Source: a virus. From it: a stretch of DNA of 64,000 nt. The notes beneath the pieces were generated by a model that was given only the letters and a program-made list of their open reading frames with translations, ran no database searches and was not told the DNA's origin. The first letter of the stretch is position 1. The number at the start of each line of letters is the position of its first letter. A program made the translations under genes and the position numbers. The DNA lies in the IMG/VR virus record IMGVR_UViG_3300032053_000008; one strand, given 5' to 3'. Shown piece after piece: positions 1,001 to 64,000 of the stretch.

Positions 1001-1320
1001 TGACCAGTTTTAAGTCTTAGTCAGGACTATGTACTTGCCGCACACAAGCGCGTATTACCAATACGCTGGGTCCTGTAGTATTAGGTCGCGGTAGGACCAG
1101 GTTCCACCTTTGACCGTATATTAACAGCCGTTTTAAGGCTATAATATATAAAGTGGCCCGTTTGGTGGAACCATACCGTGCTATCTTGAGGGGCTTTGAC
1201 TAGCTACGTTCTGCTTCTCTTTGCTAGGTTTGCGGTAACAACGCTTACCTAAGAGATATAAGGGTGTTTTGTTACTAGGGTTTCAGCCCTAAACGCACCT
1301 CATAGTGGCCCCGATGAACC
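1001..1320 (-). ncRNA. candidate structured non-coding RNA or leader
   Basis: ~320 nt with no ORF in a gene-dense genome, packed with hairpins (gcgtatt/aatacgc, ggtcct/aggacc, ggttccacc/ggtggaacc, agcc/ggct, taggg/cccta) plus an H-type pseudoknot. Strand inferred from flanking genes. Confidence 0.5.
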
Positions 1321-1321
1321 T

Positions 1322-1567
1322 TTAACCAATTGGAAGCTTTTGACCAGCTTCTTTTTCCATGTTCTTTTTGAGAACATCAAAACGCTCTTTGCTAAAGTGA
1401 GCTATATAGCCAGCGACCGGGAATTCTACCCTAGAATTGTCTTCCAGCATTAAAATCCTCAAACCAGCCAAACCATCACTAGCTTGACCAACAAAATCGC
1501 CTATAACTTTTTTAAAGACAATAGACTCTTCGCCGTTTACTGGGGTCAGTTTAACTGAATAGATCAT
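1322..1567 (-). CDS. hypothetical protein
   Basis: 81-aa ORF with AAGGAGA RBS. Confidence 0.75.
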   Translation of the reverse strand: MIYSVKLTPVNGEESIVFKKVIGDFVGQASDGLAGLRILMLEDNSRVEFPVAGYIAHFSKERFDVLKKNMEKEAGQKLPIG

Positions 1568-1655
1568 TGTATCTCCTTGTTACTATAGCTTTTTTCATGT
1601 TATTAACTTCAAGCTGTTTCAATATTGCCACACTAATATTTTTAGTGCAAGCATT

Positions 1656-1862
1656 TTAATTGTCAATAAGATCTACATCAATATCCGGCATTTTGTGACT
1701 TGTTTGCAAGATCATATAGTTAAGTTCACCGTATTTTTTGAGTTTTCGTTGTAAGGTTCTAAGGCCAATACCTATGTATTTAGCTGCATGTGTACGATTT
1801 CCTTTCATTAGTCGCAATGATTCAAGGATAAAGTCTTTTTCGTTTTGTTCGTATCTGGTCAT
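1656..1862 (-). CDS. Fis-type (HTH_8) helix-turn-helix protein
   Basis: EKDFILESL..MKGNRTHAAKYIGIGLRTLQRKLKKYG matches the Fis/bEBP C-terminal HTH. Start at ATG 1862 after an AAGGAG RBS. Confidence 0.85.
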   Translation of the reverse strand: MTRYEQNEKDFILESLRLMKGNRTHAAKYIGIGLRTLQRKLKKYGELNYMILQTSHKMPDIDVDLIDN

Positions 1863-1893
1863 AAATGCTCCTTTGACGTTAATTACATAAACC

Positions 1894-1920
1894 TTATCGG
1901 CTTTTTGGTCAAAAACTTTA
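1894..1920 (-). promoter_or_regulatory. sigma-28 (FliA/SigD)-type promoter
   Basis: Perfect TAAAGTTT-N11-GCCGATAA about 30 nt upstream of the Fis-type gene. Confidence 0.85.
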
Positions 1921-47735: not shown

Positions 47736-48209
47736 TTAGCCTGGGGTAGAACCGTCAGTCAGATTGACTGCTCCGGTGTCTTCGTCAGACTTCACAGATT
47801 CATCCCAAGCGATAGTACCGATGATGTCAACCCGGATGTCGCTAACGCCGCGTGAAGCAGCTCCAGACGACCAACCAGTGACTCGGCAACCGTTTGCTTG
47901 GAAGATGGACTTCTTAAGTTGACGATCTTCGATAGACACCGAAAAATCCTCTTCGGTCAACAGCTGGTACAAGTGGCTAGCACCTGCAACAGCGTATGGA
48001 CCTGCATCGATAACTCGGTATCCAGTCAAGGTAAGCTGAACAGCTTCTTGAGTGGTAGGTGTGATTTCTGCTGGGTTATAGCGACCAAGGATAAACTGTG
48101 GCACTTTTTCTTGACGGATAGACCAGCTAGCGTTAGAAAAAAGGCCCACAACCTTACCGTTAATGGTAACTTTAGCTCTGGCACCTGTAAAAATTTTAGA
48201 CTGAGCCAT
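47736..48209 (-). CDS. tail tube protein
   Basis: 157 aa, directly downstream of the sheath; TGARA.V.ING..VG...LG...P.EI. Confidence 0.85.
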   Translation of the reverse strand: MAQSKIFTGARAKVTINGKVVGLFSNASWSIRQEKVPQFILGRYNPAEITPTTQEAVQLTLTGYRVIDAGPYAVAGASHLYQLLTEEDFSVSIEDRQLKKSIFQANGCRVTGWSSGAASRGVSDIRVDIIGTIAWDESVKSDEDTGAVNLTDGSTPG

Positions 48210-48219
48210 ATTTTATCCC

Positions 48220-50964
48220 TTATTGTACTGCTTCTTGGGTTACTTCGCTGATCGACAATGTGATTGGCACAAAGTAGATCAATCCTGCTAACTTAGCTTC
48301 AACCGTTACAGTCATTACACCGCCAACCAATCTAACAGAAGCATTCTTGTATCCAAGAGGTGCATCATTAGAAGTAGCGATCCACTTGAGTCGGTAAAAG
48401 TTATACATTTGACCTTGAAGGAAGGACAAGGCAGCTGCAGCCGAAACTTCAGCAACTGATTGACCAACCACAACTTTGTCAAAAGCATCGATCAAGCTGA
48501 GGGTCATCAAGTCAGCCAAGTAGACGGCCTGAATGCTGTTGAACACAAAGTTAGAGTCAAGCGTGTAGGTAGTTTGGTCGCTAACGAACCGGAACCCGCC
48601 AGTGTTCACAGATTCCAAAGGAAGGAGACCGGCCTTAAGGGCGGTTTCCTTTTGGCTATAGCTGCGAGCATTGTAACTTCCATCAGCATGGAACAAACCA
48701 GCGATATTAGCGAATTTTTTGACAATACCACGGTAACCAGCAGCTGCTTGCATACCTGATGCGATTACGGCAGCCATCCAAGGCTGGTAAGACACGATCA
48801 GACCGCTAGCGCTGAGGTTTCTAACGTCTTGGAAAGACAAAGAACAACGGAAAGAAGTTAAATCACCTGCAGCTTCTTGTTGTTCAGTAAAGGTGCCAAC
48901 TCGTGACAAAAATGCTTGGCGATTAGCTCTAGACTTAACAGCGCTGCTAGAAATTACGTTAGACTTACAGGCTGCATTAATGGCATCGATTGTATAAGTA
49001 GAGCTAGACGAAGTTTCGCCAGTAGCGATATCGGTCGTAGCATCAGCCGAGAACAAAGGAACCAGGAAGTTCAAAGTAAGGTCTTTGGTTGCCTCAACTG
49101 CTGAGATTACGTCAGCGCCAGTTGTGCCACCCCGAAGTCCGCCGCTAAGGAAGTTAAAAGGTACCAAAACTTCTGGCAAACCAGCTGTTGCTGCCATAAC
49201 AGTAGACACCAAAGTAGACGAAGCCATTTCAGCTGCCCAGTCAAAAGCATCATACTTGATGCGAGCTGCTTCGTATCCAGTGATACTAGAAGCACCAAAG
49301 GTAGCTTTGTCCAAAGACCTGGGTGATACAAAGTTGAATTTGCTAGAACCAATGCTAGCCGACCAACCATTTTGAGCATTAATTGAAGCAACCAAATCAG
49401 CTAGTGTCAAGATTGTGTCAAAACTGAAAGTCAAAACACCGTTTGTGTCAGTAAGAGTCATGGCAGATGAAGAAACTTGAACTGTAGCTGTAGCACTTGT
49501 ACTACCAATACGAACAATAATATCTCCACCAGCTTCAATGGTGTTTGTATTGGAACCTTGGGTTAAGGTCATGCGGTTGATATATTCTGCACTAGAAGTG
49601 TAGAAAGTATCACCAGCATCGCTAGCTGCACCAGCCGAAGTTCTCAAAAAGGCGTCATAGTCACCAAAGGTTTCCATGGACTTACCGGTACCATCGATAG
49701 TCGATTTCAGGACCGTAAAGCCAGCAACCACGGCACTAGCCGAACCACTGGTACCAGCACTGCCGTAGCTCATGCGGAAACAGGTGATAGAAGTAGAGGT
49801 AGAACCAGTTACGCTATAGAAACCAGGCTGAATACCAGCAAAAGCTGCAGTAACTTTAAGGATGTCGCCAACACTAGGTTTGCCAACAAAAGCAACGCTA
49901 GACGTAATAGATACATTAGTACCGTCATTAATAACAGTCCAGTTAGCAGTTCCAGTAGACACAGTGCGAGCTTGGCCGGTTATATTATAGATACTGACCT
50001 GTTCCCACAAAACCAAGTCTTTTTCGCCAGAGTCAATTACACCGCTACCGGCTTCGATTGGTCCAGCAACGTTAATTGGTTTAAGGGTCATAGAGGCGTT
50101 AGAGGCTGTATTGGTTACGCTAAGAACAACATAGCTACCAATATTACCGTTACTTGCACCTTTAACGCAAGAAGAAACAACCGCGCCAAAAGAACCGGCA
50201 GCAGGGATAATTACTGTAGACCCAAGAGCAGGTACAGCGGCAAATGTTTGGCCAGTAGCCAAGGTAATTTTCAGGTTAGTGGATTGGACACTAGCGGTAA
50301 GAGCGATACCTGCCTTACCAGACAAAGAAGCTATAGCTGCTCCACCGGAAACCATAATTCCATTAGAAACGCTACCAACGGCAGCAGCAAAAGCTGCTAC
50401 GTCATCGCCAGCAGACAAGGTAAATGCATGGTTAGATGAACCGTTGATGTTGATAGAGCATCCAGTTGTGCTACCGGTATACAAAGGTGTATAAGCTTTA
50501 AGTAGAATAGTTGGAACAATTTCAGATTGAGCGACTTCGGACTTATAACGAACAAGGTTACCGGAATCTCCACCACGTACTGCTGCCAAAAGAGCATAGT
50601 CGGCAATACCAGATCTAGTCAGGATTGCGGAAGCTTTAGTAGATGCATTGGTTTTGATAATACGGATAGAAGCTGGTGCTCCGGCTACTTGTGGGTCCGA
50701 CGAAGGAGCCACAATAGACCGGTAAGCATCGACAATACGGCCTGAACCGTACTTTTGCAAAACTGCGTCAAATTGGTCTGGTCCAAAGATATTGGCATTT
50801 AGGTCAGTTTCCTGACTAAAGCCAGGACCTTCGGCTGCTTCGCCGACAAGAGCGACAACGCCAGAGGTTGGAATACCGGTTTGGCCAGAAATGACCTTTT
50901 GGGTCACATACGTTCCTGGTACTGTTAGTACAAGTCCGTCTGCGGTGATTGTTTGTTGCGCCAT
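48220..50964 (-). CDS. tail sheath protein
   Basis: PGTY...VG.A..GP N-terminus; L.GG..G and conserved C-terminal sheath domain (DQTTY...F.P). Confidence 0.9.
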   Translation of the reverse strand: MAQQTITADGLVLTVPGTYVTQKVISGQTGIPTSGVVALVGEAAEGPGFSQETDLNANIFGPDQFDAVLQKYGSGRIVDAYRSIVAPSSDPQVAGAPASIRIIKTNASTKASAILTRSGIADYALLAAVRGGDSGNLVRYKSEVAQSEIVPTILLKAYTPLYTGSTTGCSININGSSNHAFTLSAGDDVAAFAAAVGSVSNGIMVSGGAAIASLSGKAGIALTASVQSTNLKITLATGQTFAAVPALGSTVIIPAAGSFGAVVSSCVKGASNGNIGSYVVLSVTNTASNASMTLKPINVAGPIEAGSGVIDSGEKDLVLWEQVSIYNITGQARTVSTGTANWTVINDGTNVSITSSVAFVGKPSVGDILKVTAAFAGIQPGFYSVTGSTSTSITCFRMSYGSAGTSGSASAVVAGFTVLKSTIDGTGKSMETFGDYDAFLRTSAGAASDAGDTFYTSSAEYINRMTLTQGSNTNTIEAGGDIIVRIGSTSATATVQVSSSAMTLTDTNGVLTFSFDTILTLADLVASINAQNGWSASIGSSKFNFVSPRSLDKATFGASSITGYEAARIKYDAFDWAAEMASSTLVSTVMAATAGLPEVLVPFNFLSGGLRGGTTGADVISAVEATKDLTLNFLVPLFSADATTDIATGETSSSSTYTIDAINAACKSNVISSSAVKSRANRQAFLSRVGTFTEQQEAAGDLTSFRCSLSFQDVRNLSASGLIVSYQPWMAAVIASGMQAAAGYRGIVKKFANIAGLFHADGSYNARSYSQKETALKAGLLPLESVNTGGFRFVSDQTTYTLDSNFVFNSIQAVYLADLMTLSLIDAFDKVVVGQSVAEVSAAAALSFLQGQMYNFYRLKWIATSNDAPLGYKNASVRLVGGVMTVTVEAKLAGLIYFVPITLSISEVTQEAVQ

Positions 50965-52695: not shown

Positions 52696-55356
52696 TTAGA
52701 TCTTTGTGGACTTACCAGACGGAAGCATTTTGACCGCCGATAAATCGCTAGTATGTTGATTTTTAACGGGTATTTTGTCGTATAGCATAACTGAGTTAGC
52801 GAAAGTAGGGGACTCATGTCCGCTAGCTTTCCAGCCTTTATACCCCATAGACTTCAGTTCATTGTGGACCAGGTCTGGGTGACTAAGCGCGTGTTCGCTT
52901 GGTCCGTAGTGCTCTTTGTGCTTGTCTTTTACCTTGGCAAACACTTTGTCTGGGTCTTTGGACAAATCGTAGATGTCTTTGTCTTTGACTTGTATATGGT
53001 ACCTGGACAAGTTGTTGAACATTTGTTCAGCGTCTTCTCCATTAGATCCGTAAGTATGCAAATAGTTTGCAGGTTTAAAACCTGGCATATTATGGTTAAG
53101 GTATTCCCGGCTTTGCTGGATACGGGCCTTTTCTTTGCCTGCCTGACCGGTAAACTGGAAAGATGGGTCTAGGGACTGAAGGTCTGGATGCCTACTAAAA
53201 TGGACTAGATCTAGCACCTTAAAATTATCTTCAGCTTTGGATATTTTGTCCCAAACACCCATTGCTGCGGGGGTTTGAAGCGAGGAACCTAAAACCTCTT
53301 TACCGGAAACTTTTTGGGCATGTTGATACATTGCAGTTGCCAGCCCTTTTCTTTGATGTTCAGGGAAAACATTAGTCATACCAGGCATAAGTTTATTTTC
53401 ATGGAGTTCGTGAGGAACAATTATGGTATGGCCAACTATCTGACCTTGTGGACTTTTTGCATAAACGTGAAGTTCATCGTGCTCTTCCTTGTCAGACAAA
53501 TCTTCATCTTGATTTGCCTTCCATTCATGAAAAACATGATAACCTTCTTTTCGCCAATCACCATTTTGGCCTTTTTCTAAGTCTTCAGCTTTAGATATAG
53601 CTTCAGACACCTTGCGATTGTGTTTTGTGTTTGACATCACAGCCAAAACAGCTTCAGTCAGGTTTTGGCCCATACCTGCCGTAAGGTTAATAGAATACTT
53701 TGTTTCCAATTTGGTCATAAAGTCGTAAAGTTCAGATTTTTCGGTAGGCGGCAGTGTAAATATAAAATCGCTACCAGCAAACCCCAGGAAATCTCCTGCG
53801 TGCTCTTCTATAAAAGACTCTATGTCTATTTTGATGTGTTGCAGCTTTTTGATTTTGTCGGTTAGCTCTTTTGTGCTGTTAGATTCCAGGGAGTCAACTA
53901 TGAAATCATATATGTCCTGGAAAGACAAACACACGGTAACCGGTTTGTATTTTTTGTCTTTTGGGTGACTTTTTTCTAGGGACTTAAAAAGCTCTTCGCT
54001 TGGCTTAGGCCAGCCAAGGTTTACCATAGTTTCTATGGCTATTTGCCTTTGTTCGGATTTACCAAAAGGACGATTTTTTTGACCCCATAAAGCATAAGCA
54101 TCCTCTGATTGTTGACCATCAGTACCTCTAATCTTCTTACCAGTTAACTTTTCTGCCATTACATATGCCGATGTTGCTAACCCTTTACGTTGATGTGTAT
54201 CTTCGGTATCACTATTAACAATACCCAGATGTTTTCCAGTATGATCGTGTTCGAAAATATAAAGCCCTGCCAACTTACCGCTTGGATGATAGGCATGAAT
54301 AATTACGCCATATTTATTAACTTTAGGGGTAAGTTTATAGCCTTCTTTTTGCCAATCACCATTTTGACCTTTTTCTAGGTCTTCGGATTTGTTAACAATA
54401 CCTTTACGCTTAGCCATTTCTCCAGCCCATTTGCTGACGTTTCTGTCTGGATCTCTAAGGCCCATCTGAACCGTGGTTTCATCTGCACCAGGATGAGACA
54501 ATAAAAGCTTTTTTATTCCCCACTTAGGATGGTTCATCATAAAGTTAAGTTCAGCAGGTTTATAGTTTTTATGTTTAGCCATATAAGGGGCTGCTGCAGC
54601 ACCATGAGTATGAGGGGCACCAAAGTCACTGTTAACTATGTCGGTAGTTGGGAACTTGGTGTTGTCTCTAGGCACATTTTTGTGGGGGCTTACAATAAAT
54701 TCGTCTTCGTGTCCGTGACCGGCTGGATCTGTGTCAGGGTGACCTAACTCATAGCTGAACCAAACGTTCTTTAAAGGAACGTGCTGGTGATGTTCATGTT
54801 GACCAAATTGTCCTTGAGTTTTGTCGGCTATGGAATACAAAGCATGGTCATCTCCCCTTTGGCTTGGGGTTATGTTCATGTTCCTAGCCAGACGCAAATG
54901 GGGGGTACCATTAAGTTGGTCTACGGCCTTAGGGGCATTTTGGGTAATAGTGTCATGCAAGCTACGCTGGTGAGCTAGTAGCTGCGGAACAATATGAGGG
55001 TTTTGGGCTAGACCGGCGCTAAGGCTATCTGTAGTTATGTGACCAATCTTTTTCGCGGCATTGCCTTGTTGGTGATGACTCAAAAACGCCTGGTCCATCA
55101 TTTTTTGTTGGTCTGGCTTAGATGCCGAATAAGCGTCAGCATTTTCAGATCTGTGGATAGCGTACTTTAGCAAAAGAGATGAAGGTGAATGGGGAGAATG
55201 CTTATAGCTAGAATACATCTCATTTAGTGTAGCATTTGGCTTAAAGTGCGGCGTAGGTGCGCTAATAGGCAAACTAGAATGGACCTGTAGCCCAATTTGC
55301 TTGTCTTGGCTGGTACTAGAAGACAATGCACTTGGGTGTTTAGTCATCGTTATCAT
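52696..55356 (-). CDS. polyvalent effector protein: ART-like / GNAT / degenerate mCpol / GNAT / ART-like
   Basis: R-S-ExE pattern (LARN, YSIA, HEDEFIV); two HQRKGLAT acetyl-CoA motifs; mCpol-like AGSD...TAGMGQNL.EA; C-terminal VHFS...LDP...IYDL...GYKG. Confidence 0.75.
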   Translation of the reverse strand: MITMTKHPSALSSSTSQDKQIGLQVHSSLPISAPTPHFKPNATLNEMYSSYKHSPHSPSSLLLKYAIHRSENADAYSASKPDQQKMMDQAFLSHHQQGNAAKKIGHITTDSLSAGLAQNPHIVPQLLAHQRSLHDTITQNAPKAVDQLNGTPHLRLARNMNITPSQRGDDHALYSIADKTQGQFGQHEHHQHVPLKNVWFSYELGHPDTDPAGHGHEDEFIVSPHKNVPRDNTKFPTTDIVNSDFGAPHTHGAAAAPYMAKHKNYKPAELNFMMNHPKWGIKKLLLSHPGADETTVQMGLRDPDRNVSKWAGEMAKRKGIVNKSEDLEKGQNGDWQKEGYKLTPKVNKYGVIIHAYHPSGKLAGLYIFEHDHTGKHLGIVNSDTEDTHQRKGLATSAYVMAEKLTGKKIRGTDGQQSEDAYALWGQKNRPFGKSEQRQIAIETMVNLGWPKPSEELFKSLEKSHPKDKKYKPVTVCLSFQDIYDFIVDSLESNSTKELTDKIKKLQHIKIDIESFIEEHAGDFLGFAGSDFIFTLPPTEKSELYDFMTKLETKYSINLTAGMGQNLTEAVLAVMSNTKHNRKVSEAISKAEDLEKGQNGDWRKEGYHVFHEWKANQDEDLSDKEEHDELHVYAKSPQGQIVGHTIIVPHELHENKLMPGMTNVFPEHQRKGLATAMYQHAQKVSGKEVLGSSLQTPAAMGVWDKISKAEDNFKVLDLVHFSRHPDLQSLDPSFQFTGQAGKEKARIQQSREYLNHNMPGFKPANYLHTYGSNGEDAEQMFNNLSRYHIQVKDKDIYDLSKDPDKVFAKVKDKHKEHYGPSEHALSHPDLVHNELKSMGYKGWKASGHESPTFANSVMLYDKIPVKNQHTSDLSAVKMLPSGKSTKI
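53543..54384 (-). repeat. 44-bp direct repeat pair (53543-53586 and 54341-54384)
   Basis: Both copies encode EDLEKGQNGDWxKEG directly before a GNAT domain. Confidence 0.9.
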
Positions 55357-56407
55357 CCCCTATAATAACATGATAAGGGTCTTCTATTGGGCCGTCACCT
55401 AAAGTAGGGAAATCACTAGTAACTTGCCAAGATGGATTGTTTGGCTCGATAGGGTCAGTCAAACTAGTGCGTGGCTTATACCCAGCCCATCTACCTTTGT
55501 TATTGGGTCCATTAGGCCCATCTTCTATAAGAACTTGTCCTGTAATTACTTCCAGTTTAGGGGCAGCATGTTTAATCCAGGTGATTGGTACTACACCAGT
55601 CAAGGTTATATACCTAGAAAAAACAGTGTCGGCCTGGAAAGAATTATTTCTTTGAAGTGCGCTAGATGAAACTTTGGACAGCTCAAAAAGGCGACCTTCT
55701 AGGTAAGACTCTTTATATCGCATCAGGCAATACATCACAACCTGCCACATCCATATACAACATCCAGCATCGCCATTAGCATGACAAGCTATGGTGTAGC
55801 TTTCATTAATAAAAGAGATTTCTTGGTCTAGATTCCATACACCAAATTTGGTTCTGATGTGAGACCTGGAAAAGTTCTCCCTTAGATCAGGAGCTATTCT
55901 AAATGAATTGTTTCCGGTAACTTCGTATATTACATAAGCTTTATTGGTTTTGTTGGCTACCAGAAATTGGCCTTCTCTGATATTAGCCATGCTAACCGTG
56001 CTAGGCACAATAACTATACCAGTTACAGTGTCATAAGACTCTACGCTAAATGTAGGGGTAAGGTTTCTGGCATTTGTGACAATACCAGTTGGGTCAAATG
56101 GATCTATAAGCCTTTGGTCGCCCAAAGAGGTGCGGTCCATAGCTTCACTGTTGTCATTATACGAAACAATAATACATGGCACCGGAACCGTGTCGGCTAT
56201 ACGGTAAGCCAATAAAACAGGGATTTCATTATTTAAAAACCAGTTAGAAGCAGCTTCTACTTCTTTGTATCCATAGTCCTTAGAAGCAAGATAATCTTGA
56301 GCTAAGGTGCTAAATATGTCTTCAACTATCCACTTGTTTTTACGCAAATCCGCAATAGACGCTTCAAGCATCGTTTTTATCAAAATATCACTAGATAAAA
56401 CACCCAT
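55340..56407 (-). CDS. neck / tail-completion protein
   Basis: Synteny between head-completion genes and sheath; P.I.V...E...LG and F.R.I.L terminator-like patterns. Confidence 0.6.
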   Translation of the reverse strand: MGVLSSDILIKTMLEASIADLRKNKWIVEDIFSTLAQDYLASKDYGYKEVEAASNWFLNNEIPVLLAYRIADTVPVPCIIVSYNDNSEAMDRTSLGDQRLIDPFDPTGIVTNARNLTPTFSVESYDTVTGIVIVPSTVSMANIREGQFLVANKTNKAYVIYEVTGNNSFRIAPDLRENFSRSHIRTKFGVWNLDQEISFINESYTIACHANGDAGCCIWMWQVVMYCLMRYKESYLEGRLFELSKVSSSALQRNNSFQADTVFSRYITLTGVVPITWIKHAAPKLEVITGQVLIEDGPNGPNNKGRWAGYKPRTSLTDPIEPNNPSWQVTSDFPTLGDGPIEDPYHVIIGDDNDD

Positions 56408-57258
56408 TATGCGCCCCTGAAATAGTCTTCTAAAGACTTTACTATTTTGTCCCATTCTTTAGTAGCATAATCGTATGCGGCAGGAATACTGTGAAGAGGT
56501 TTAACTTCGGGGTACATCCACCTTCCCTCTGCCTCATGCTTGCTACTTACAACCCTAAATGTAACTACTTCTTTTTTGACCTTACCTCTTTTAGATGGTC
56601 TTTGGACCACAACTCCACCTGACAGATAGTGAGCACCTTCGTAGTTTGGTAGCCCTAGAGCTTCAGCTTCATCAGCTGTACGCCCTTTAGACCGGTATTG
56701 GTATATGTTGTCGCTAGCCGGGTCATTTAACTGAGGGATGTCTTTTAGCCTGTTAACTATGCCAATCATTGGCATTCCATCGGGGCCTTTTTCGATTTTA
56801 CGCATACTGACGCCATTTGCCTTAAGGGAGGCATCTATAGCTTCTCTCATACCAGAAGGAGTGGTCAGAGCGTTTTTGTCATGGCTAAAAGGTATGACCT
56901 TGAATTTACTGCCATCTTTGGCAGTCTTAAGTCCCGGACCTGGTTTAAGCAGCCAGTCTTCTGTTGCCATACTCACGGCTGGCCTACCGCTCTCGACCCA
57001 CTTAGCTGATTCATCGATTTCTACTACCCACATATTCTTAGAAACTTGTATCCATCTGATATTGCTACCATCTTCACCTAAAAATGCTTCTAGTGGGTAA
57101 CCTTTTAAGTGGTCCTGAGCATACTTGATAATAAAAGCGTGGGTGGAAATAGAAAGGGCCTCTACAGCCCCATTCAATTTCTTTGCTACCTCTTTTTCTA
57201 CAACACCTAGCTTATCAGCTATTTCTTTGTAGTTAGCCCTTATGGTAAAGTCGGTCAC
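56407..57258 (-). CDS. neck / head-tail joining protein
   Basis: K..KDG....VIPF.H and TFRVVS.......W.YP motifs seen in myovirus neck proteins. Confidence 0.65.
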   Translation of the reverse strand: MTDFTIRANYKEIADKLGVVEKEVAKKLNGAVEALSISTHAFIIKYAQDHLKGYPLEAFLGEDGSNIRWIQVSKNMWVVEIDESAKWVESGRPAVSMATEDWLLKPGPGLKTAKDGSKFKVIPFSHDKNALTTPSGMREAIDASLKANGVSMRKIEKGPDGMPMIGIVNRLKDIPQLNDPASDNIYQYRSKGRTADEAEALGLPNYEGAHYLSGGVVVQRPSKRGKVKKEVVTFRVVSSKHEAEGRWMYPEVKPLHSIPAAYDYATKEWDKIVKSLEDYFRGA

Positions 57259-58472
57259 TGCTGCTTAGCCTTTTGTTGTTGATTGTTGGCTTTTACCGAT
57301 ATATCAGTACCATCGGTAGCCTGAACTTGGCCTGAGGCCATTGAGCGCCATACTTCTTTACCGTTTACCAGAACTTTTTTGTAGTTGCCCTTGCGGGTTC
57401 CAACAGGGAAACGGATACCAGACATAGCCTGAGGACCAGAAGAACTGACGCCCTTTTTTTCTAGGTCTTGTTCAGATTTTTGAACTTGCTTGGCGCTGGT
57501 GATCAATTTCTGGATCATAGACATAGTTTGCTGGAAAGCTTTAGGGTCCTTGCTGGCCATAGCCATAATCTGAGGTATTTGCGCCTTAACGTCTTTAAGT
57601 TTGTCCATTAATTCTTGGTTGTGGTCGGCGGTAGCTTCTTTGGTAGCATCATCGACTTCTTGAGCTACTTCTTGTGCTGCCTGTTCTTGTTCCTGTCCGT
57701 CACCTTCGCCCTGTTGTTGTCCAGGTGCCTGTTGTTGTTGAGGCTGACCACTAAGTTGACCAAGCAAATCAGTAGTATTGGTATTAGCATGGGCATCTGG
57801 GTCTTCCTGGCCTTGCGGCTGTTGTTGTTGCTGGGCTTGTTGTTGTTGCATCATTTGCTGTTGTTGTTGAGCGGCTTGTTCGATTTCCCCGGCACCAAGC
57901 ATTTCATTTATGGCTTGAATAAACTGGGCTTCAGCGCTAAAACTTTCTTTTAGAGACATACGCTTGGGCACTGGATTAGATTTTTGGTCTATAACTTTTT
58001 GGTAAGGCTTGTCATCTGGCTGTTCTGGGTCAAATAGGTTGGTAGGCAAACTGACGTTTTGATTTATGTTTGTTCTTGAATTGGAAGTTTTTGTAATTTT
58101 TTCTTGGTAAGTATCTGCCGGATTAAAAAGTTCAACTTTACCAGTTTTATAAGATTTCTTGGCAGCCATTGCCGCTTCTTGGAAATCTAATCCAACACCA
58201 ATAGCCAGTCCATCTCCAGCAGTTTCGGTAAAGTTTTCAATTAAATTAGGTAGTTCTGCCGCTACATCAATAGGTATTTCCATAGCTATAAAGTCTGGAT
58301 TACAAAATGGCATAGATCCACCGTGGGATTCCACAGTAGATTTCATTTTGTCTATAAGTCCCTGTAATTCAAACTGATAATGGTTGGCTACGCTAAATCG
58401 GCCCTCTTTGGCCGAATTAATTAGTTTGTCTCTTACTGCATCCGCAAATATAACTGCCCATACCTTACTCAT
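57255..58472 (-). CDS. protein with N-terminal degenerate mCpol-like domain and poly-Gln region
   Basis: VIFADAV...VESHGG....NPD...AIGVG....EA..A.K...GK; QQQQQMMQQQQ tract. Confidence 0.6.
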   Translation of the reverse strand: MSKVWAVIFADAVRDKLINSAKEGRFSVANHYQFELQGLIDKMKSTVESHGGSMPFCNPDFIAMEIPIDVAAELPNLIENFTETAGDGLAIGVGLDFQEAAMAAKKSYKTGKVELFNPADTYQEKITKTSNSRTNINQNVSLPTNLFDPEQPDDKPYQKVIDQKSNPVPKRMSLKESFSAEAQFIQAINEMLGAGEIEQAAQQQQQMMQQQQAQQQQQPQGQEDPDAHANTNTTDLLGQLSGQPQQQQAPGQQQGEGDGQEQEQAAQEVAQEVDDATKEATADHNQELMDKLKDVKAQIPQIMAMASKDPKAFQQTMSMIQKLITSAKQVQKSEQDLEKKGVSSSGPQAMSGIRFPVGTRKGNYKKVLVNGKEVWRSMASGQVQATDGTDISVKANNQQQKAKQQ

Positions 58473-58476
58473 ACGC

Positions 58477-59592
58477 TCACCTGTATTTTGTATTCAGCTT
58501 GTTTTTTAAGGTTTCGACAAAAGCTTCAATGATTTCTGGATCTGCTTTTGAACTAAAACTTATTTTATATCCACCAGATGTTTTACTCAACCTTAAAAAC
58601 GCTTTATTTTTGTTTTCTTGGGAAGTTACATAAAAACAAGCACAAGGGGAATATTTTGGGCCAGACTCGGACTTAGTAAACTCAGGAGTTTTGCAATGAG
58701 GGCAAGGAGCGTATAAATCTGATTCGCTTATTGTGATTTCCGGCTCTTTTTTCTCTAGTTGAGCTTTAGTAAGATAGTTCCTGAAATAAGTGGCTGGTGT
58801 AGATGTAGGTTTGGCAGGTTTAGTGGCTGCGATGTTGAGTTTGTGTTGGATCATGGCCGGATTTTGTGCGGTATCGGCTTTTGTTTGCCCTTTGGTTTGC
58901 TGGGTAACTTGTTTGGTCATTGCCGCTTTAGGGTCTCTAGATGGAGCTGTTGCTTTAAGTGGAGCTACCGGTCCGTTTGGGGCAGCGTGGCCACTTGGGG
59001 CACCAGTTTCGTGCATTCCAGCTTTTTCAATCTTTTCTTTAGAGTCTTCCACCGCTTTAGCGGTAAACTTTTCGTCCATTATTCGATCAATAACTTTACC
59101 AAGAATTTTAGTAACTTCCACCATTGCATTAATGGCAGTGTCGGACTGTGGCATAACTGGCATATGAATATCTGAGGCAGACATCAAGGCCGCTGGCAAT
59201 TCACTAGAACCAGCTTTTTTGCCGTCATAGTCTTCAGTCATGGACATCAAATGTCCGCCAAAGGCTGGCAAAGTTTGGTTTTCAAAGGAATGGACAATAT
59301 GTCCACCTTTTATGAATTGGGCAGTATAGGCATCTAGGCCAGTTTTATTGACTTGGATCTTTAGGTCGTCTAGGCCAGGATAAGATAAAACCTTTTCGTC
59401 ACCTGGGTGCATAGGCTTAATGGAAGATACTAGCCAGGACAATATGGTTCTAGGGACAGCTAAAATAGGCAGATACATATCAATAGGAGACAAAAGAGAT
59501 TTGCTGTCCCTACGATACATAGTCTTACTTAGCGTTTCAAAGCCGTCATCGCCAAGCAAGCTTTTTAGTAGTTTTTCTGCCTTAGTGTGCAT
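58477..59592 (-). CDS. hypothetical virion/head protein with C-terminal Zn-finger
   Basis: CPHC...CAC; multiple hydrophobic-x-K-[SAT] motifs. Confidence 0.65.
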   Translation of the reverse strand: MHTKAEKLLKSLLGDDGFETLSKTMYRRDSKSLLSPIDMYLPILAVPRTILSWLVSSIKPMHPGDEKVLSYPGLDDLKIQVNKTGLDAYTAQFIKGGHIVHSFENQTLPAFGGHLMSMTEDYDGKKAGSSELPAALMSASDIHMPVMPQSDTAINAMVEVTKILGKVIDRIMDEKFTAKAVEDSKEKIEKAGMHETGAPSGHAAPNGPVAPLKATAPSRDPKAAMTKQVTQQTKGQTKADTAQNPAMIQHKLNIAATKPAKPTSTPATYFRNYLTKAQLEKKEPEITISESDLYAPCPHCKTPEFTKSESGPKYSPCACFYVTSQENKNKAFLRLSKTSGGYKISFSSKADPEIIEAFVETLKNKLNTKYR

Positions 59593-60018: not shown

Positions 60019-60987
60019 TTACGTTTTTGGGCCTTTAGTGGGTGGAGCGCCGAAATTTCCTACAGTATTATTAGTAGCTTCCGGGTAAATACCGCTATAT
60101 TGACGAGGAGCCAAATCGCTTCTTGGGTCATCCCCCTGAAGAGGTCTAGCTGGATCATTGCGGTTTTTATCCATAAAGATATTTTCCCTTAGTGCCAAAA
60201 CCTCAAAAGGCATTCTTTCAAGCTTTCTTTCATAGGTTAAGGGATCGGTAACATTTGTAACTCTGATTTCATGTAAGATCTTATCAACTATGAAAAAAGG
60301 AGTATACAAATAACGTACCGCATAAACAGTTTCTCTTCCTATTGTTGGATTATACCCAGGTCTTCTTTGGGTGGTCCATTTAAGCCAGCCCTCAGAAGTA
60401 ATGACAAAATCTTTGTCTTGGGTATATTCTTCGCCATTAGCATCTACAAGGTCCACAACCTTTAGAGCAGGGAATTGCAAACGATCTATTCCAGTTGAAC
60501 TGGCTTCCATGTATTGCATACAAGATACATACATTTCTATGTCAGCTAAATAGAATCTATCCCAAGCTTGCAAAATTACTGGCTCTAAACTATCTTCGTA
60601 ATACCTTGTAACTGTTAAATAAACTGAAGCAAAAGACAGGTTTCCCATATCTTCAGCTTTTGTGTCTTTAGTATTATTATGGAACCAAGCATACACATGT
60701 CCGGAATTTTTGTAAATATATCCATCAGAGTTGCGCGGTCTAAGATTCATTACATCTCTATTGTCACCACGGCTGGCCATACCTCTTGGGTCTGGCAAAG
60801 CTCTTTGATGAACAAGCCTTACTCCGTGAGTTTTGATCAAAAAATCGAATTTGTCTGCATCAAAACTGACCTGAGATTTAGTTAGGTCAATAATGCTTTG
60901 AGGACCTTCAAGAGGCCTATCTACTCTTGGTCTTGGACCATTGTCTGTATGGTCGGTACGACCTTTAGGTGGCTTAGGTGGCTTCAT
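60019..60987 (-). CDS. neck / head completion protein
   Basis: F...F..LI..HG.R and DR....D...YAVRY...P.F.V..I.HE.R patterns; synteny. Confidence 0.65.
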   Translation of the reverse strand: MKPPKPPKGRTDHTDNGPRPRVDRPLEGPQSIIDLTKSQVSFDADKFDFLIKTHGVRLVHQRALPDPRGMASRGDNRDVMNLRPRNSDGYIYKNSGHVYAWFHNNTKDTKAEDMGNLSFASVYLTVTRYYEDSLEPVILQAWDRFYLADIEMYVSCMQYMEASSTGIDRLQFPALKVVDLVDANGEEYTQDKDFVITSEGWLKWTTQRRPGYNPTIGRETVYAVRYLYTPFFIVDKILHEIRVTNVTDPLTYERKLERMPFEVLALRENIFMDKNRNDPARPLQGDDPRSDLAPRQYSGIYPEATNNTVGNFGAPPTKGPKT

Positions 60988-61457: not shown

Positions 61458-61858
61458 AAAGTAAACATCCTTTTGATTCTATCAAGGAAAGTCGGCTTGT
61501 TGTGTTCTGGTTCGATTTCCTTGTCTTCAAAGGCATTGTCTCTAATAATATGCTCTTTTTGATCTTCTCTGGCCCGATACTCTAACCACTTATAAAAATC
61601 AAAAGAAAAATCAATGCTTTTAGGTAGCTGCAATTGAGTTTTAATTAATGGTTTTTCTTTATTAAAATGGGCCGCCAAATAAGAAGTACTGTTAAAATAC
61701 CTCAATAAGAAAACTTTTGCTTCATCAAGATCTTTTGCTTTGTCTAGCATAAGGCTTATGGATGGGTAACTTTCAACAATTGGTTCCATGTCAGACCAGT
61801 TGTTAACTTTAAACTGTTTTTCTTCATTGCTCATGGTGTTTTTAACTATTAATATCAC
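61454..61858 (-). CDS. hypothetical protein
   Basis: Coupled ORF in the structural cluster. Confidence 0.65.
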   Translation of the reverse strand: MILIVKNTMSNEEKQFKVNNWSDMEPIVESYPSISLMLDKAKDLDEAKVFLLRYFNSTSYLAAHFNKEKPLIKTQLQLPKSIDFSFDFYKWLEYRAREDQKEHIIRDNAFEDKEIEPEHNKPTFLDRIKRMFTL

Positions 61859-63164
61859 CTAAGAATTTCCTTACCTTGTGTGACATAAACGGAGTTAAAT
61901 GTTTGGCCCCATTTGGCATCTTGTCGTCATGGGCAAGTATATCACGGAGTTTAAGTTTGTCTAGGTGTTTATGGTAGTCAGTTTTTTTGCCGTTGTCTTG
62001 CATAAGAGCTTTAGTTATATGAAGTTTGGCTTGGATTCCATTGTCGTTATGTGGAAAATTACCTAATATTTCTAACAATTTATCTTTAGGTATATCATTA
62101 AACTGCTCTTTGCCTGTAGCTGAGCCAACAGCTTCAGATATATCCCATGGATTATGAGTTTTTCCATGCAAAGATTTAGCTACGTGATTTAAAGCTTTGT
62201 CTGGGGTACCATCAAGATATAGAACATTACTTTTGTTTTTTGGTTGATCTGCGGAAATATCCGAAAAGAATGGTTCATGCCCAGCTAAAGTGTCATTTGC
62301 CCATTTAGTCATGGCATCGTGTCTGGATTTATAAGAAGATACTATGTGATTTTTCCAGTCATCATGTTTAATGCCGTTAGCTTCATCAATCAAAGAGCCT
62401 TTAACTTTTGGAGCACTATTTAACCACCAAGATGCTAAATTTTTAGCATGTTGGTGGTCTCTATCGGCCTCTGGAGTAAAACGATATAAAGCACTGTTAC
62501 GCGTTAAGTCTTCCATTGAGTTAGTACCACGATCATAACCAAAAGCGAAAGAGTGATCAATAGCTAGTGGACTGTGATACCCTTTTTGGTCTGGAAGATT
62601 ATTGGCCATTATATTGCCAGAATGTCTGTCAATATTACCTGTAAGGTAGTCCATTACATTAATTTTATTAGCAACAAGTGGATCTATTTGATGTTTTTGA
62701 TGGTTATATTCTTCAGTATTATCAGCAAACTTGTGGACCATTACCGGCATTTCACCAATAGAAGTGCTTAGAGTGTGGTGTTTTACATCTTCGATGTTGT
62801 GGTGTAGGCCAGCCGCTTCGTACATTCTTTTTGTGGCTGAGGTAGCAAATCCACCTAAACCGTTGTTTACTTTAGAGTTATAAGGCTTAACCATAAACGT
62901 ACTGTTTGGCGTTTTGTATACCAGCTTGTCTTCATACCCTTCAGCCATATTTTTAGGCTTGTGGTGTTCGCTAGAAGACACGGCTTGATCAAAGTCCGCA
63001 TGACCGCCAGCAGATTGGGTAGGTTTCAGATATGACGCAGATTCTTCATTGTGGGCCTTACTAGCAAAATCAGTCAATGAGGGCTGGTCTAGCTTTTTAG
63101 CCAGCAACTGTTCAGTAGGTAAGTACTCAGGTTGAGTCCTTAGTGTATACCACGCCTTTATCAT
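61842..63164 (-). CDS. HipA/PI3-PI4-kinase-like protein kinase
   Basis: FMVKP (ATP-binding Lys), DYLTGNIDRHSGN catalytic loop, LAIDH metal-binding motif. Confidence 0.8.
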   Translation of the reverse strand: MIKAWYTLRTQPEYLPTEQLLAKKLDQPSLTDFASKAHNEESASYLKPTQSAGGHADFDQAVSSSEHHKPKNMAEGYEDKLVYKTPNSTFMVKPYNSKVNNGLGGFATSATKRMYEAAGLHHNIEDVKHHTLSTSIGEMPVMVHKFADNTEEYNHQKHQIDPLVANKINVMDYLTGNIDRHSGNIMANNLPDQKGYHSPLAIDHSFAFGYDRGTNSMEDLTRNSALYRFTPEADRDHQHAKNLASWWLNSAPKVKGSLIDEANGIKHDDWKNHIVSSYKSRHDAMTKWANDTLAGHEPFFSDISADQPKNKSNVLYLDGTPDKALNHVAKSLHGKTHNPWDISEAVGSATGKEQFNDIPKDKLLEILGNFPHNDNGIQAKLHITKALMQDNGKKTDYHKHLDKLKLRDILAHDDKMPNGAKHLTPFMSHKVRKFLGDINS

Positions 63165-64000
63165 ACATGTCCGCTAAAGAATTTGCTGGAAGTTATCTGC
63201 TTGATTCTTTTGATATATTTTTGAGCTTGTTCGTCTGCATTTTTGCGCTTTTCTTGGAGCAAAGAAAACATGTTGTCGTTAACTGATTGGCTAAGACCAT
63301 CGATGCCTAAGGACTGAGTAGCGTACCGGAACTGCGGTATAAGATTATCCAAGACAAGCATGGTAGCCATGCACCCAACAGCTTCATTGATAATAACCGG
63401 CACTTGGCCTTCGGCAGTACCAAAACCGCACACAACTTCAGTGTTCCAATAAGATGGAACCCAGCCGGACTGGCCGATGAACTGCATAATGGTTGCCCCA
63501 CCAGCCGGAGCCGATACGTCAGCTCCAATAGCCGAAAAGGCAGGGTTCAGGGGATTAACAATAAGGGTACCTCTAGAAGCATTAGCCATATCAATCCATT
63601 GATTAGGTATCTTATAGATCAAATTGGTAGCAGGGTACTGGGATGTTTCTTGGTCTGGATTGCTATTATATGCAGCAGCCCTAATAGACAAATCAATAAC
63701 GGTCTGGATGGGTTTATTTGGTACTTCCAGTGTCATAAAAGAGAAGTATAAGTTAGGGTCAAAAGGCAAACGGTACCGGCGCACAACCTGGAATATTTCT
63801 ACCTGACACATCAATTCAAAGTCATTGGCAGCTCTCTGGATAAAGTCCTTAAGCATGGCATTAGTTATTTTTTGCTTAGTTACAGGTGAAGTAAGTGGAA
63901 TACCCCACAAAAAACGATCCATAAGTACATCTGGGGTAATGAATGGCTCAACTCGGGTTAAGCCACTAGCACCCTCCAAGACTTTTTCTGGATATACGGA
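63161..64000 (-). CDS. head-tail adaptor / neck protein, 5' end beyond window
   Basis: QSLGIDGLSQS motif of SPO1/Twort-like neck proteins; frame open from 63979 to 64000. Confidence 0.7.
   Translation of the reverse strand, partial: SVYPEKVLEGASGLTRVEPFITPDVLMDRFLWGIPLTSPVTKQKITNAMLKDFIQRAANDFELMCQVEIFQVVRRYRLPFDPNLYFSFMTLEVPNKPIQTVIDLSIRAAAYNSNPDQETSQYPATNLIYKIPNQWIDMANASRGTLIVNPLNPAFSAIGADVSAPAGGATIMQFIGQSGWVPSYWNTEVVCGFGTAEGQVPVIINEAVGCMATMLVLDNLIPQFRYATQSLGIDGLSQSVNDNMFSLLQEKRKNADEQAQKYIKRIKQITSSKFFSGHV

Follow-up and report, generated by a model that had tools for sequence, protein, structure and literature searches.

Two mCpol-like palm domains with eroded catalytic motifs in the virion module of an Mx1-like myovirus

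The window analyzed here is a stretch of 64,000 nucleotides, part of the 136.8-kb IMG/VR virus record (IMGVR_UViG_3300032053_000008) of a large, uncultured phage. Two of its genes encode proteins with a domain related to mCpol, the minimal CRISPR polymerase. One is P0001, a polyvalent protein of 886 amino acids (aa) that carries the domain in its middle, and the other is P0002, a 405-aa protein that carries it at the N-terminus. The region containing both domains is a long minus-strand virion module. The two peptides quoted in the preliminary description of this DNA are both present on the minus strand, and correspond to the following domains.

53602..53940, minus strand: mCpol-like palm domain of P0001, residues 473-585 (CLSFQDI...HAGDFLGFAGSDFIF...LTAGMGQNLTEAVLA)
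58122..58472, minus strand: mCpol-like palm domain of P0002, residues 1-117 (VIFADAV...HGGSMPFCNPDFI...LAIGVGLDFQEAAMAAKKSYKTGK)

In Pfam, mCpol is represented by PF18182, with a curated cut-off of 26.4 bits. The P0001 domain scores 22.1 bits (E 2e-4) against this model, and 26.5 bits in a six-frame search. The P0002 domain scores 17.8 bits (E 4.5e-3), and 19.5 bits in a six-frame search. Both alignments span nearly the whole model with scores around or below the cut-off, and the direct Pfam scores taken alone are only suggestive. BLASTP between the two domains gives no significant match (E 0.31), and at the sequence level their kinship is visible only through profiles. Profile A2 contains six sequences, comprising both window types and close relatives, and A1 is a slightly longer version of it. 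Compared by hhalign with a profile of eight proteins that pass PF18182, A2 is aligned over 111 columns with a probability of 99.0% and an E of 7.6e-18. When PDB sequences are searched with A1, the two best matches are the Panoptes mCpol OptS (E 0.004 and 0.01). A search of 1.84 billion representatives (clusters at 50% identity) with A2 yields 125 proteins at E<1e-3. Bona fide mCpols are included among them: P0056, P0072, P0075, and P0068, which score 49.7, 59.1, 59.5, and 58.8 bits against PF18182, respectively.

AlphaFold2 (AF2) models of both domains, built with family alignments, show the beta-alpha-alpha-beta-beta-alpha-beta-alpha topology of the palm (ferredoxin-like) fold, whose presence had been proposed as a check on the preliminary description. 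The predicted local distance difference test score (pLDDT) is 89-97 for the N-terminal domain of P0002 (63-row alignment), and its mean is 89 for residues 432-600 of P0001. In Foldseek, OptS (9pd0/9mnr/9nwn) ranks first for the P0002 model, with E values of 4e-5 to 1e-4 and template modelling (TM) scores of 0.69-0.75 by target. For the P0001 model OptS is joint first, with TM scores of 0.77-0.80 by target and a root-mean-square deviation (rmsd) of 2.2-2.5 Å. Lower ranks are occupied by GGDEF domains, class III cyclases, Cas10, and Y-family polymerases. A VIA-align superposition of the P0001 domain on 9pd0 covers 117 of 119 residues with a Z of 15.9 and an rmsd of 2.1 Å. The other joint-top Foldseek match of P0001 is GTP cyclohydrolase III. 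It was rejected as the source of the domain, as sequence profiles favor mCpol and the match spans only one of the two palm repeats of that enzyme. The hhalign comparison, the search of representatives, the PDB profile search, and the topology and OptS matches of the AF2 models settle the homology. Both stretches are confirmed, far beyond chance, as true mCpol palm domains by sequence and fold, and the mCpol-like layout proposed earlier for both is borne out, with OptS as the top or joint-top solved match.

In KpOptS, the metals are held by Asp6 on the first strand and Asp57 on the beta2-beta3 hairpin, and mutants of these residues lose activity (PMC12657218). The equivalent pair in the type II mCpol Cst, D11/D63, is termed the canonical metal-binding pair of palm polymerases (PMC13577387). 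The corresponding motifs read FAD and NPD in P0002, and SFQD and GSD in P0001. In the ungapped register of the direct alignment between P0002 and OptS, Asp6 corresponds to Phe9, Gly7 to Ala10, Asp8 to Asp11, and Asp57 to Asp60. Asp60, within N-P-D-F, lies 51 residues past position 9, which is the canonical spacing; the gapped hidden Markov model (HMM) alignment shifts it by one column. P0007, which is 58% identical to P0002, has Tyr at the Asp6 position. For P0001, three independent alignments place Ser478 at Asp6, Ser529 at Asp57, and Asp530 one position further. One alignment puts Asp530 in the Asp57 column, and an alternative register puts Phe479 at Asp6. Whatever register is tried, the Asp6 position carries no carboxylate in either protein. 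Of the hairpin glycines, both are gone in P0002 and one is gone in P0001. Judged from these alignments, one metal ligand is certainly gone in both proteins, and both ligands are probably gone in P0001. The erosion of the DGD and GGD motifs described earlier is thus real, with a non-acidic residue at the Asp6 position in both domains.

The 125 matches of the A2 search place P0002 in a family of at least 125 clusters at 50% identity. The majority of them are proteins of 340-450 aa with the mCpol domain at the N-terminus. In the domain tree, P0002 nests within a large group, every member of which is eroded. Apart from it there are a second group with N-G-D...S-G-D-E and a smaller one with D-G-D...G-G-D-[DE]. 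The residues at the two metal-binding positions were tallied over 130 aligned family domains, as follows.

Asp at the Asp6 position, acidic residue at the Asp57 position: 18 of 130 domains
Asn at the Asp6 position, acidic residue at the Asp57 position: 37 of 130 domains
Other residue at the Asp6 position, acidic residue at the Asp57 position: 38 of 130 domains
Other residue at the Asp6 position, no acidic residue at the Asp57 position: 29 of 130 domains
Four small mixed classes: 8 of 130 domains

In terms of aligned motifs, the family grades from canonical (DGD...GGDE) to fully eroded. In the eroded group (52 sequences), N/D-G-D-x-x-G, G-D-E, and K-A-L-x-Y-G-K are not conserved, unlike in the canonical-like group. 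The fold markers GG, G-x-G, and E-A-x-x-A are kept, and a conserved Trp2 and an Arg after the hairpin acid are gained. The loss of motifs for nucleotide and metal handling, together with the retention of fold markers, is the pattern expected of a fold kept for a non-catalytic purpose.

Such a purpose could be dimerization. A two-copy AlphaFold model of P0002 residues 1-125 gives an ipSAE (interaction prediction score from aligned errors) of 0.52, against 0.02 for the best control. The ipSAE mark is reached by 20 of 30 proteins solved as same-chain pairs and by 1 of 23 solved as single chains. Contacts agree in at least 95% between the dimer runs, and the pLDDT of the partner is at least 86. 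The homodimer check proposed in the preliminary description gives a positive prediction. In the modeled interface, the beta2-beta3 hairpin (55-63) of one copy packs against the partner's helix at residues 17-33, reproducing the composite-pocket arrangement known from OptS. Position 33 of P0002 is aligned with Ser30 of OptS, the base-reading residue given by the neighboring protomer. The mCpol-like domain of P0002 is probably a dimerization module, as far as the models indicate.

In P0002 itself, the N-terminal mCpol-like domain is followed by an acidic and Q-rich disordered middle, then by a helical segment that is conserved, and, past a K-S-E site, by a small beta domain at the C-terminus (57258..57410, minus strand), for which AF2 predicts strands within residues 364-392 with a pLDDT of ~80. 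In the family, homology beyond the mCpol domain is composed of a variable acidic, Q- or P-rich disordered stretch followed by the helical segment D/N-P-x-A-F/Y...M...I..K-L-I..A-K. In one large family group, the helical segment is followed by a K-[S/A]-E site and then the small beta domain. The motif of the beta domain, PVGT.KG..KKV.V.GK.VWRS..SGQV.D..G..ISV, is common to the eroded orthologues and absent from the canonical-like group. No usable lead was obtained for residues 126-405 of P0002 from the ESM Atlas.

The surrounding genes are listed below from high to low coordinate. The portal, the major capsid protein (phrog_752), and two ClpP-type head maturation proteases are encoded just past the high end of the window.

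63161-63979: fibre-like protein
61842-63164, minus strand: PI3/PI4-kinase-like protein
60019-60987: virion structural protein
58477-59592: 371-aa protein
57255-58472, minus strand: P0002, 405 aa
56407-57258 and 55340-56455: two conserved genes without assignment
52696-55356, minus strand: P0001, 886 aa, followed by two more genes before the tail sheath
48220-50964: tail sheath
47736-48209: tail tube

The P0001 gene is located between neck-region genes and the tail sheath gene. The sole cultured relative found is Myxococcus phage Mx1, whose sheath is 37% identical and in which most of the module is syntenic. When P0002, P0001, P0016, and P0056 were searched by tblastn against 50,697 phage records, only Mx1 was found, besides one GNAT match in Tunturiibacter phage Tunturi_5. 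Two pattern scans of IMG/VR found no confirmed relatives, and PHROGs contain no match for P0001, P0002, or ten family members. Orthologues of P0002 are in the syntenic position on six contigs (L004, L006, L007, L009, L012, and L013) and in Mx1, where the orthologue is WNM70340.1. The shared order, common to seven independent phage loci and Mx1, is a 300-370 aa gene, the mCpol-headed gene, genes of ~280 aa and ~350 aa, sometimes a polyvalent protein gene, and then the sheath and tube genes. In Mx1-like myoviruses, the 405-aa gene belongs to the syntenic core. As a separate observation, the 440-aa PI3/PI4-kinase-like gene of the window (61842-63164, minus strand) is kept in the same module of L004, L006, and Mx1, where it is annotated as "kinase".

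P0001 is built of five parts, and one copy of the mCpol-like domain indeed lies inside a polyvalent protein of the virion cluster, as described earlier, between two GNAT modules that are enclosed by two end domains.

54391-55356, minus strand: N-domain, residues 1-322
54061-54381, minus strand: first GNAT, residues 326-432
53941..54060, minus strand: two-helix N-terminal extension of the mCpol-like cassette, residues 433-472 (model helices 2-15 and 23-31), conserved in P0009 and P0010; the whole mCpol-like module spans residues 433-588
53239-53583, minus strand: second GNAT, residues 592-706
52699-53229, minus strand: C-domain, residues 710-886

The two GNATs are paralogues (39% identity, E 7e-19), and only for the second is the Pfam match significant. 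The first is matched in Tunturiibacter phage Tunturi_5 by a polyvalent protein that is annotated as "MutT/NUDIX hydrolase" (42% identity over 86 aa). The end domains match no Pfam, PHROG, or PDB-sequence (phmmer) family, and residues 1-322 gave no usable ESM Atlas lead. P0001 (window 52696-55356, minus strand) was compared with the polyvalent proteins at L006:13120-15894 and L004:13097-15076. P0010 (924 aa), from a phage with a 97% identical 405-aa protein, has a different GNAT and a ParB-like (DGNHR) cassette in the variable slots. In P0009 (659 aa), from a more distant phage, both variable slots are empty and no GNATs are present. The N-domain, the mCpol-like module, and the C-domain, with both end domains conserved, are constant across the three variants. 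With multiple unrelated domains, a virion-adjacent position, and cassette shuffling, P0001 fits the description of polyvalent proteins given by Iyer et al. 2017 (PMC5512222).

The mCpol cassette is absent from the polyvalent proteins of L007 and L009 and from the examined part of the large "NUDIX hydrolase" polyvalent protein of Mx1. Docking of the P0001 cassette on the P0002 domain as a capsid-targeting device was considered and set aside because of these proteins. Other polyvalent proteins on related contigs contain internal mCpol modules after K-S-E or K-S-D. The module of P0086 is fully canonical (D-G-D...G-G-D-D) and is fused to a PI3/PI4-kinase-like domain. In the domain tree, the P0001-type cassette forms a separate long branch, and it is no recent copy of P0002.

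Kinase-like domains are joined directly to mCpol in two proteins outside the window, P0086 (mCpol and PI3_PI4_kinase) and P0076 (mCpol and APH-like); the loci concerned are window 61842-63164 (minus strand), L011:10001-13600, and L013:10001-12943. Two genes downstream of the mCpol-kinase polyvalent protein, on a 167-kb phage contig, a 2H-phosphoesterase/LigT-like gene is seen at L011:16257-17009. This could be a cyclic-nucleotide phosphodiesterase beside a canonical phage mCpol.

A short motif, K-[S/A/T]-E, recurs at the module boundaries within these proteins. The sites and two associated loci past the high end of the window are as follows.

57471..57479, minus strand: K332-S-E334 of P0002, putative head-protease site before the C-terminal domain, conserved in P0005 and P0007
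54382..54390, minus strand: K323-S-E325, N-domain/GNAT1 junction of P0001
54052..54060, minus strand: K433-S-E435, GNAT1/mCpol-like junction of P0001
53584..53592, minus strand: K589-A-E591, mCpol-like/GNAT2 junction of P0001
53230..53238, minus strand: K707-A-E709, GNAT2/C-domain junction of P0001
L010:4612-5520, minus strand: 302-aa scaffold candidate with five K[SA]E sites, directly upstream of the major capsid gene, ~4.6-5.5 kb past the high end of the window
L010:500-1096 and 1105-1899, minus strand: two adjacent ClpP-type head maturation protease paralogues of 198 and 264 aa, conserved in L004 and L006

Of 42 P0002 orthologues, 27 have K[SAT][ED] in the 50 aa that precede the PVGT motif, and most of the others have K-x-E there. 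K-[S/A/T]-E is found at every junction of P0001, P0009, and P0010, though their cassettes differ, and the swaps always fall there. In the head-side cluster of the window, K[SAT]E is observed 12 times, compared with 3.8 expected from composition. Across the 11,206 aa outside this cluster (the sheath, the tube, the baseplate, and further large minus-strand open reading frames, 2064-50964), it is observed twice, compared with 4.7 expected. This scarcity outside the head proteins may reflect avoidance. Based on the placement of the motif, its enrichment, and the two adjacent ClpP-type proteases, the simplest reading is that these are prohead-protease sites. P0001 and P0002 would then both pass through the prohead, with K-[S/A/T]-E as putative cleavage sites. 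P0002 is unlikely to be the scaffold, since the gene immediately upstream of the major capsid gene encodes a 302-aa product with five K[SA]E sites. For phage polyvalent proteins, packaging in the capsid has been predicted (PMC5512222). The gene position, the polyvalent architecture, and the putative protease sites suggest delivery with the virion.

These features can be combined into one reading, in which both domains are pseudo-cyclases. Both would descend from an mCpol palm domain and have lost the canonical two-Asp metal site, most likely together with cyclic-nucleotide synthesis. The N-terminal domain of P0002 would keep the fold and probably a symmetric mCpol-type dimer. This domain would serve as an oligomerization head on a largely disordered, head-associated protein of the Mx1-like core virion module, which would be cut by the ClpP-type prohead protease at the conserved K-[S/A]-E. 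The mCpol-like domain of P0001 would be the constant hub, or middle module, of a polyvalent effector polyprotein. GNAT and ParB-like cassettes would be swapped between near-identical phages at the K-[S/A/T]-E junctions of this polyprotein, which is probably taken into the capsid and cleaved into its modules. Three functions had been offered in the preliminary description: sequestering of cyclic dinucleotides, poisoning of host cyclases, and a structural role. A structural role fits best, for P0002, because the gene is a syntenic core gene, the nucleotide motifs are unconserved among the orthologues, and a homodimer is predicted. Sequestering and poisoning find no support in the analysis. Taken as a whole, the pseudo-cyclase reading appears to us evenly balanced between being right and being wrong.

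Several points weigh against it. The hairpin Asp (Asp60 and Asp530) and the second first-strand Asp (Asp11 and Asp481) are retained in both domains, and with these pairs, residual or non-canonical catalysis, or binding of metals or nucleotides, may persist. The dimer score may owe to likeness with solved mCpol or GGDEF dimers. An mCpol-type interface is still plausible for P0002, and the model falls short of demonstrating dimerization. K[SAT]E is a short motif, and its reading as a protease site comes from placement and enrichment only. The rest of P0002 matches no known virion component in PHROGs or the ESM Atlas. No virion proteome was found for Mx1 or its relatives.

Two other explanations apply to both domains. 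The domains might be non-catalytic nucleotide sponges, in which the pseudo-active-site pocket of the dimer binds cyclic di- or oligonucleotides or nucleoside triphosphates. Delivered, or produced early, they would soak up the host immune signals of type III CRISPR, the cyclic oligonucleotide-based anti-phage signaling system (CBASS), and the pyrimidine cyclase system for anti-phage resistance (Pycsar). The fold persists, as do one hairpin Asp and the composite pocket predicted where the two copies meet, phages are known to deploy sponges against such signals (PMC12657218, PMC13577387), and the polyvalent context hints at an effector role for the 886-aa copy (PMC5512222). However, canonical members hold the triphosphate and metals with motifs that the orthologue group does not conserve, and known sponges (Acb2 and Tad) are of an unrelated fold. 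Besides, depletion of the nucleotides made by mCpol, or silencing of mCpol, releases the Panoptes toxin (PMC12657218, PMC12657230). Because Panoptes is triggered by nucleotide loss, a sponge or a poison would be double-edged and could harm the phage in Panoptes hosts, where sequestering mCpol-type nucleotides triggers abortive infection. We consider a sponge unlikely. It is still less probable that the domains are enzymes, that is, non-canonical cyclases or nucleotidyltransferases working via Asp11/Asp60 or Asp481/Asp530 or via a metal site formed across the dimer. No first-strand residue is better conserved in the family than the Asp that aligns with OptS Asp8 (75 of 130 rows). In 37 members, Asn takes the place of Asp6 and the G-D-E hairpin is intact, a hint that the loss of Asp6 is tolerated. 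The literal GGDD motif is missing in OptS, too (PMC12657218). On the other hand, KpOptS needs Asp6 for full activity (PMC12657218), and the residue here is Phe or Ser, not Asn or Glu. In addition, P0001 and the eroded group have lost the glycines of the hairpin as well as the K-A-L-x-Y-G-K helix.

A decaying relic and a dominant-negative poison are two further explanations. P0009 has kept more of the motifs than P0001, with the reading IGD...AGADF...AGIGSDLEEA...AKMKGK, and canonical mCpol cassettes are present in other polyvalent proteins such as P0086. The P0001 cassette might then be a decaying relic, the dead remnant of a once-active mCpol kept as a spacer only. Yet the mCpol-like module is the only middle module kept in all three variants while its neighbors are swapped, its model is confident and compact (pLDDT 89), and it contains no stops or frameshifts; a mere relic has in our estimation a slim chance of being correct. 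The active site of mCpol is assembled from two protomers (PMC12657218), and the P0002 domain is predicted to use the same interface. It can therefore be imagined that the eroded domain acts as a dominant-negative poison, heterodimerizing with the palms of host mCpol, GGDEF, or Cas10 and blocking shared active sites. This is highly improbable, as the identity to host-type mCpols is only ~20% and a silenced Panoptes mCpol would release the toxin, aborting the infection. The 405-aa gene is moreover conserved as a core gene whatever the defense repertoire of the host, which argues for a phage-intrinsic role.

Apart from the pseudo-cyclase reading, a bolder speculation can be made for the family as a whole. 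Where the motifs are intact, as in P0072, P0075, and the P0086 cassette, the mCpol-headed core protein might work as an active cyclase that enters the capsid alongside the DNA, or is produced late, and that supplies or mimics host cyclic-nucleotide signals. The copies in the window would be remnants kept for assembly or for binding the same ligand. A possible use of the active cyclase would be silencing Panoptes-type guard effectors while sponges or nucleases of the phage strip immune nucleotides. We regard this speculation as rather unlikely.

The characterization of mCpol dates only from 2025-2026, as the signal generator of bacterial Panoptes guard systems, and in the mCpol and Panoptes literature searched it is treated as a host defense enzyme. 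The present results make mCpol a widespread syntenic virion-module component of a large, mostly uncultured myovirus clade, and a recurrent polyvalent cassette. No earlier description appears to exist of a virion-module protein that is headed by mCpol, syntenic across a clade, and graded in its motifs from intact to eroded. The family offers a natural series for two questions: the use of mCpol by phages (counter-defense, signaling, or assembly) and the conversion of a cyclase fold to a non-catalytic module. Bench tests are feasible in Mx1, a cultured phage that has an orthologue. The copies in the window are eroded, and the surrounding family holds more interest.

Among known systems, the closest is the Panoptes mCpol OptS (PF18182; 9mnr, 9pd0, and 9nwn), which has the same minimal palm of ~115 residues and is the best match in structure and sequence. 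The model of P0002 uses the same hairpin-to-helix interface that forms the composite active site of OptS. OptS is a stand-alone bacterial enzyme that is paired with a membrane effector and needs Asp6 and Asp57, whereas the domains in the window are phage-encoded and fused to other sequences, with Asp6 lost in both and Asp57 probably lost as well in the 886-aa copy. Pfam and PHROG scans of the neighboring genes matched no Panoptes 2TM-beta or CARF-TM effector, and the gene order is that of phage structural genes. The domains in the window lack a defining feature of active mCpol and are outside any Panoptes system.

The GGDEF and RelA/SpoT cassettes of polyvalent proteins (Iyer et al. 2017, PMC5512222) are likewise palm cyclase-type modules, set in multi-enzyme proteins for which packaging in the capsid and release into the host are predicted. 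GGDEF is listed in that study, and mCpol is not mentioned. In contrast to those cassettes, the cassette in the window is eroded and constant rather than variable, and it is bordered by K-[S/A/T]-E junctions instead of relying on an in-built zincin peptidase.

The LapD GGDEF-EAL structure is among the fold matches of P0001. Degenerate GGDEF domains of bacterial signaling proteins (LapD-type) are palm cyclase folds that have lost catalysis and are kept for dimerization or ligand binding. They work as receptors or scaffolds for cyclic di-GMP, often with an I-site (RxxD). The proteins in the window have neither an RxxD I-site nor a partner EAL domain.

In phage T4, the internal proteins and Alt come from the late cluster, and both their packaging in the capsid and their cleavage after Glu by the prohead protease gp21 are proven. 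No sequence relation is seen between them and the proteins in the window, and the protease here is ClpP-type. The resemblance is in the late cluster and in the carriage in the head and cutting at short motifs ending in Glu that are proposed for P0001 and P0002.

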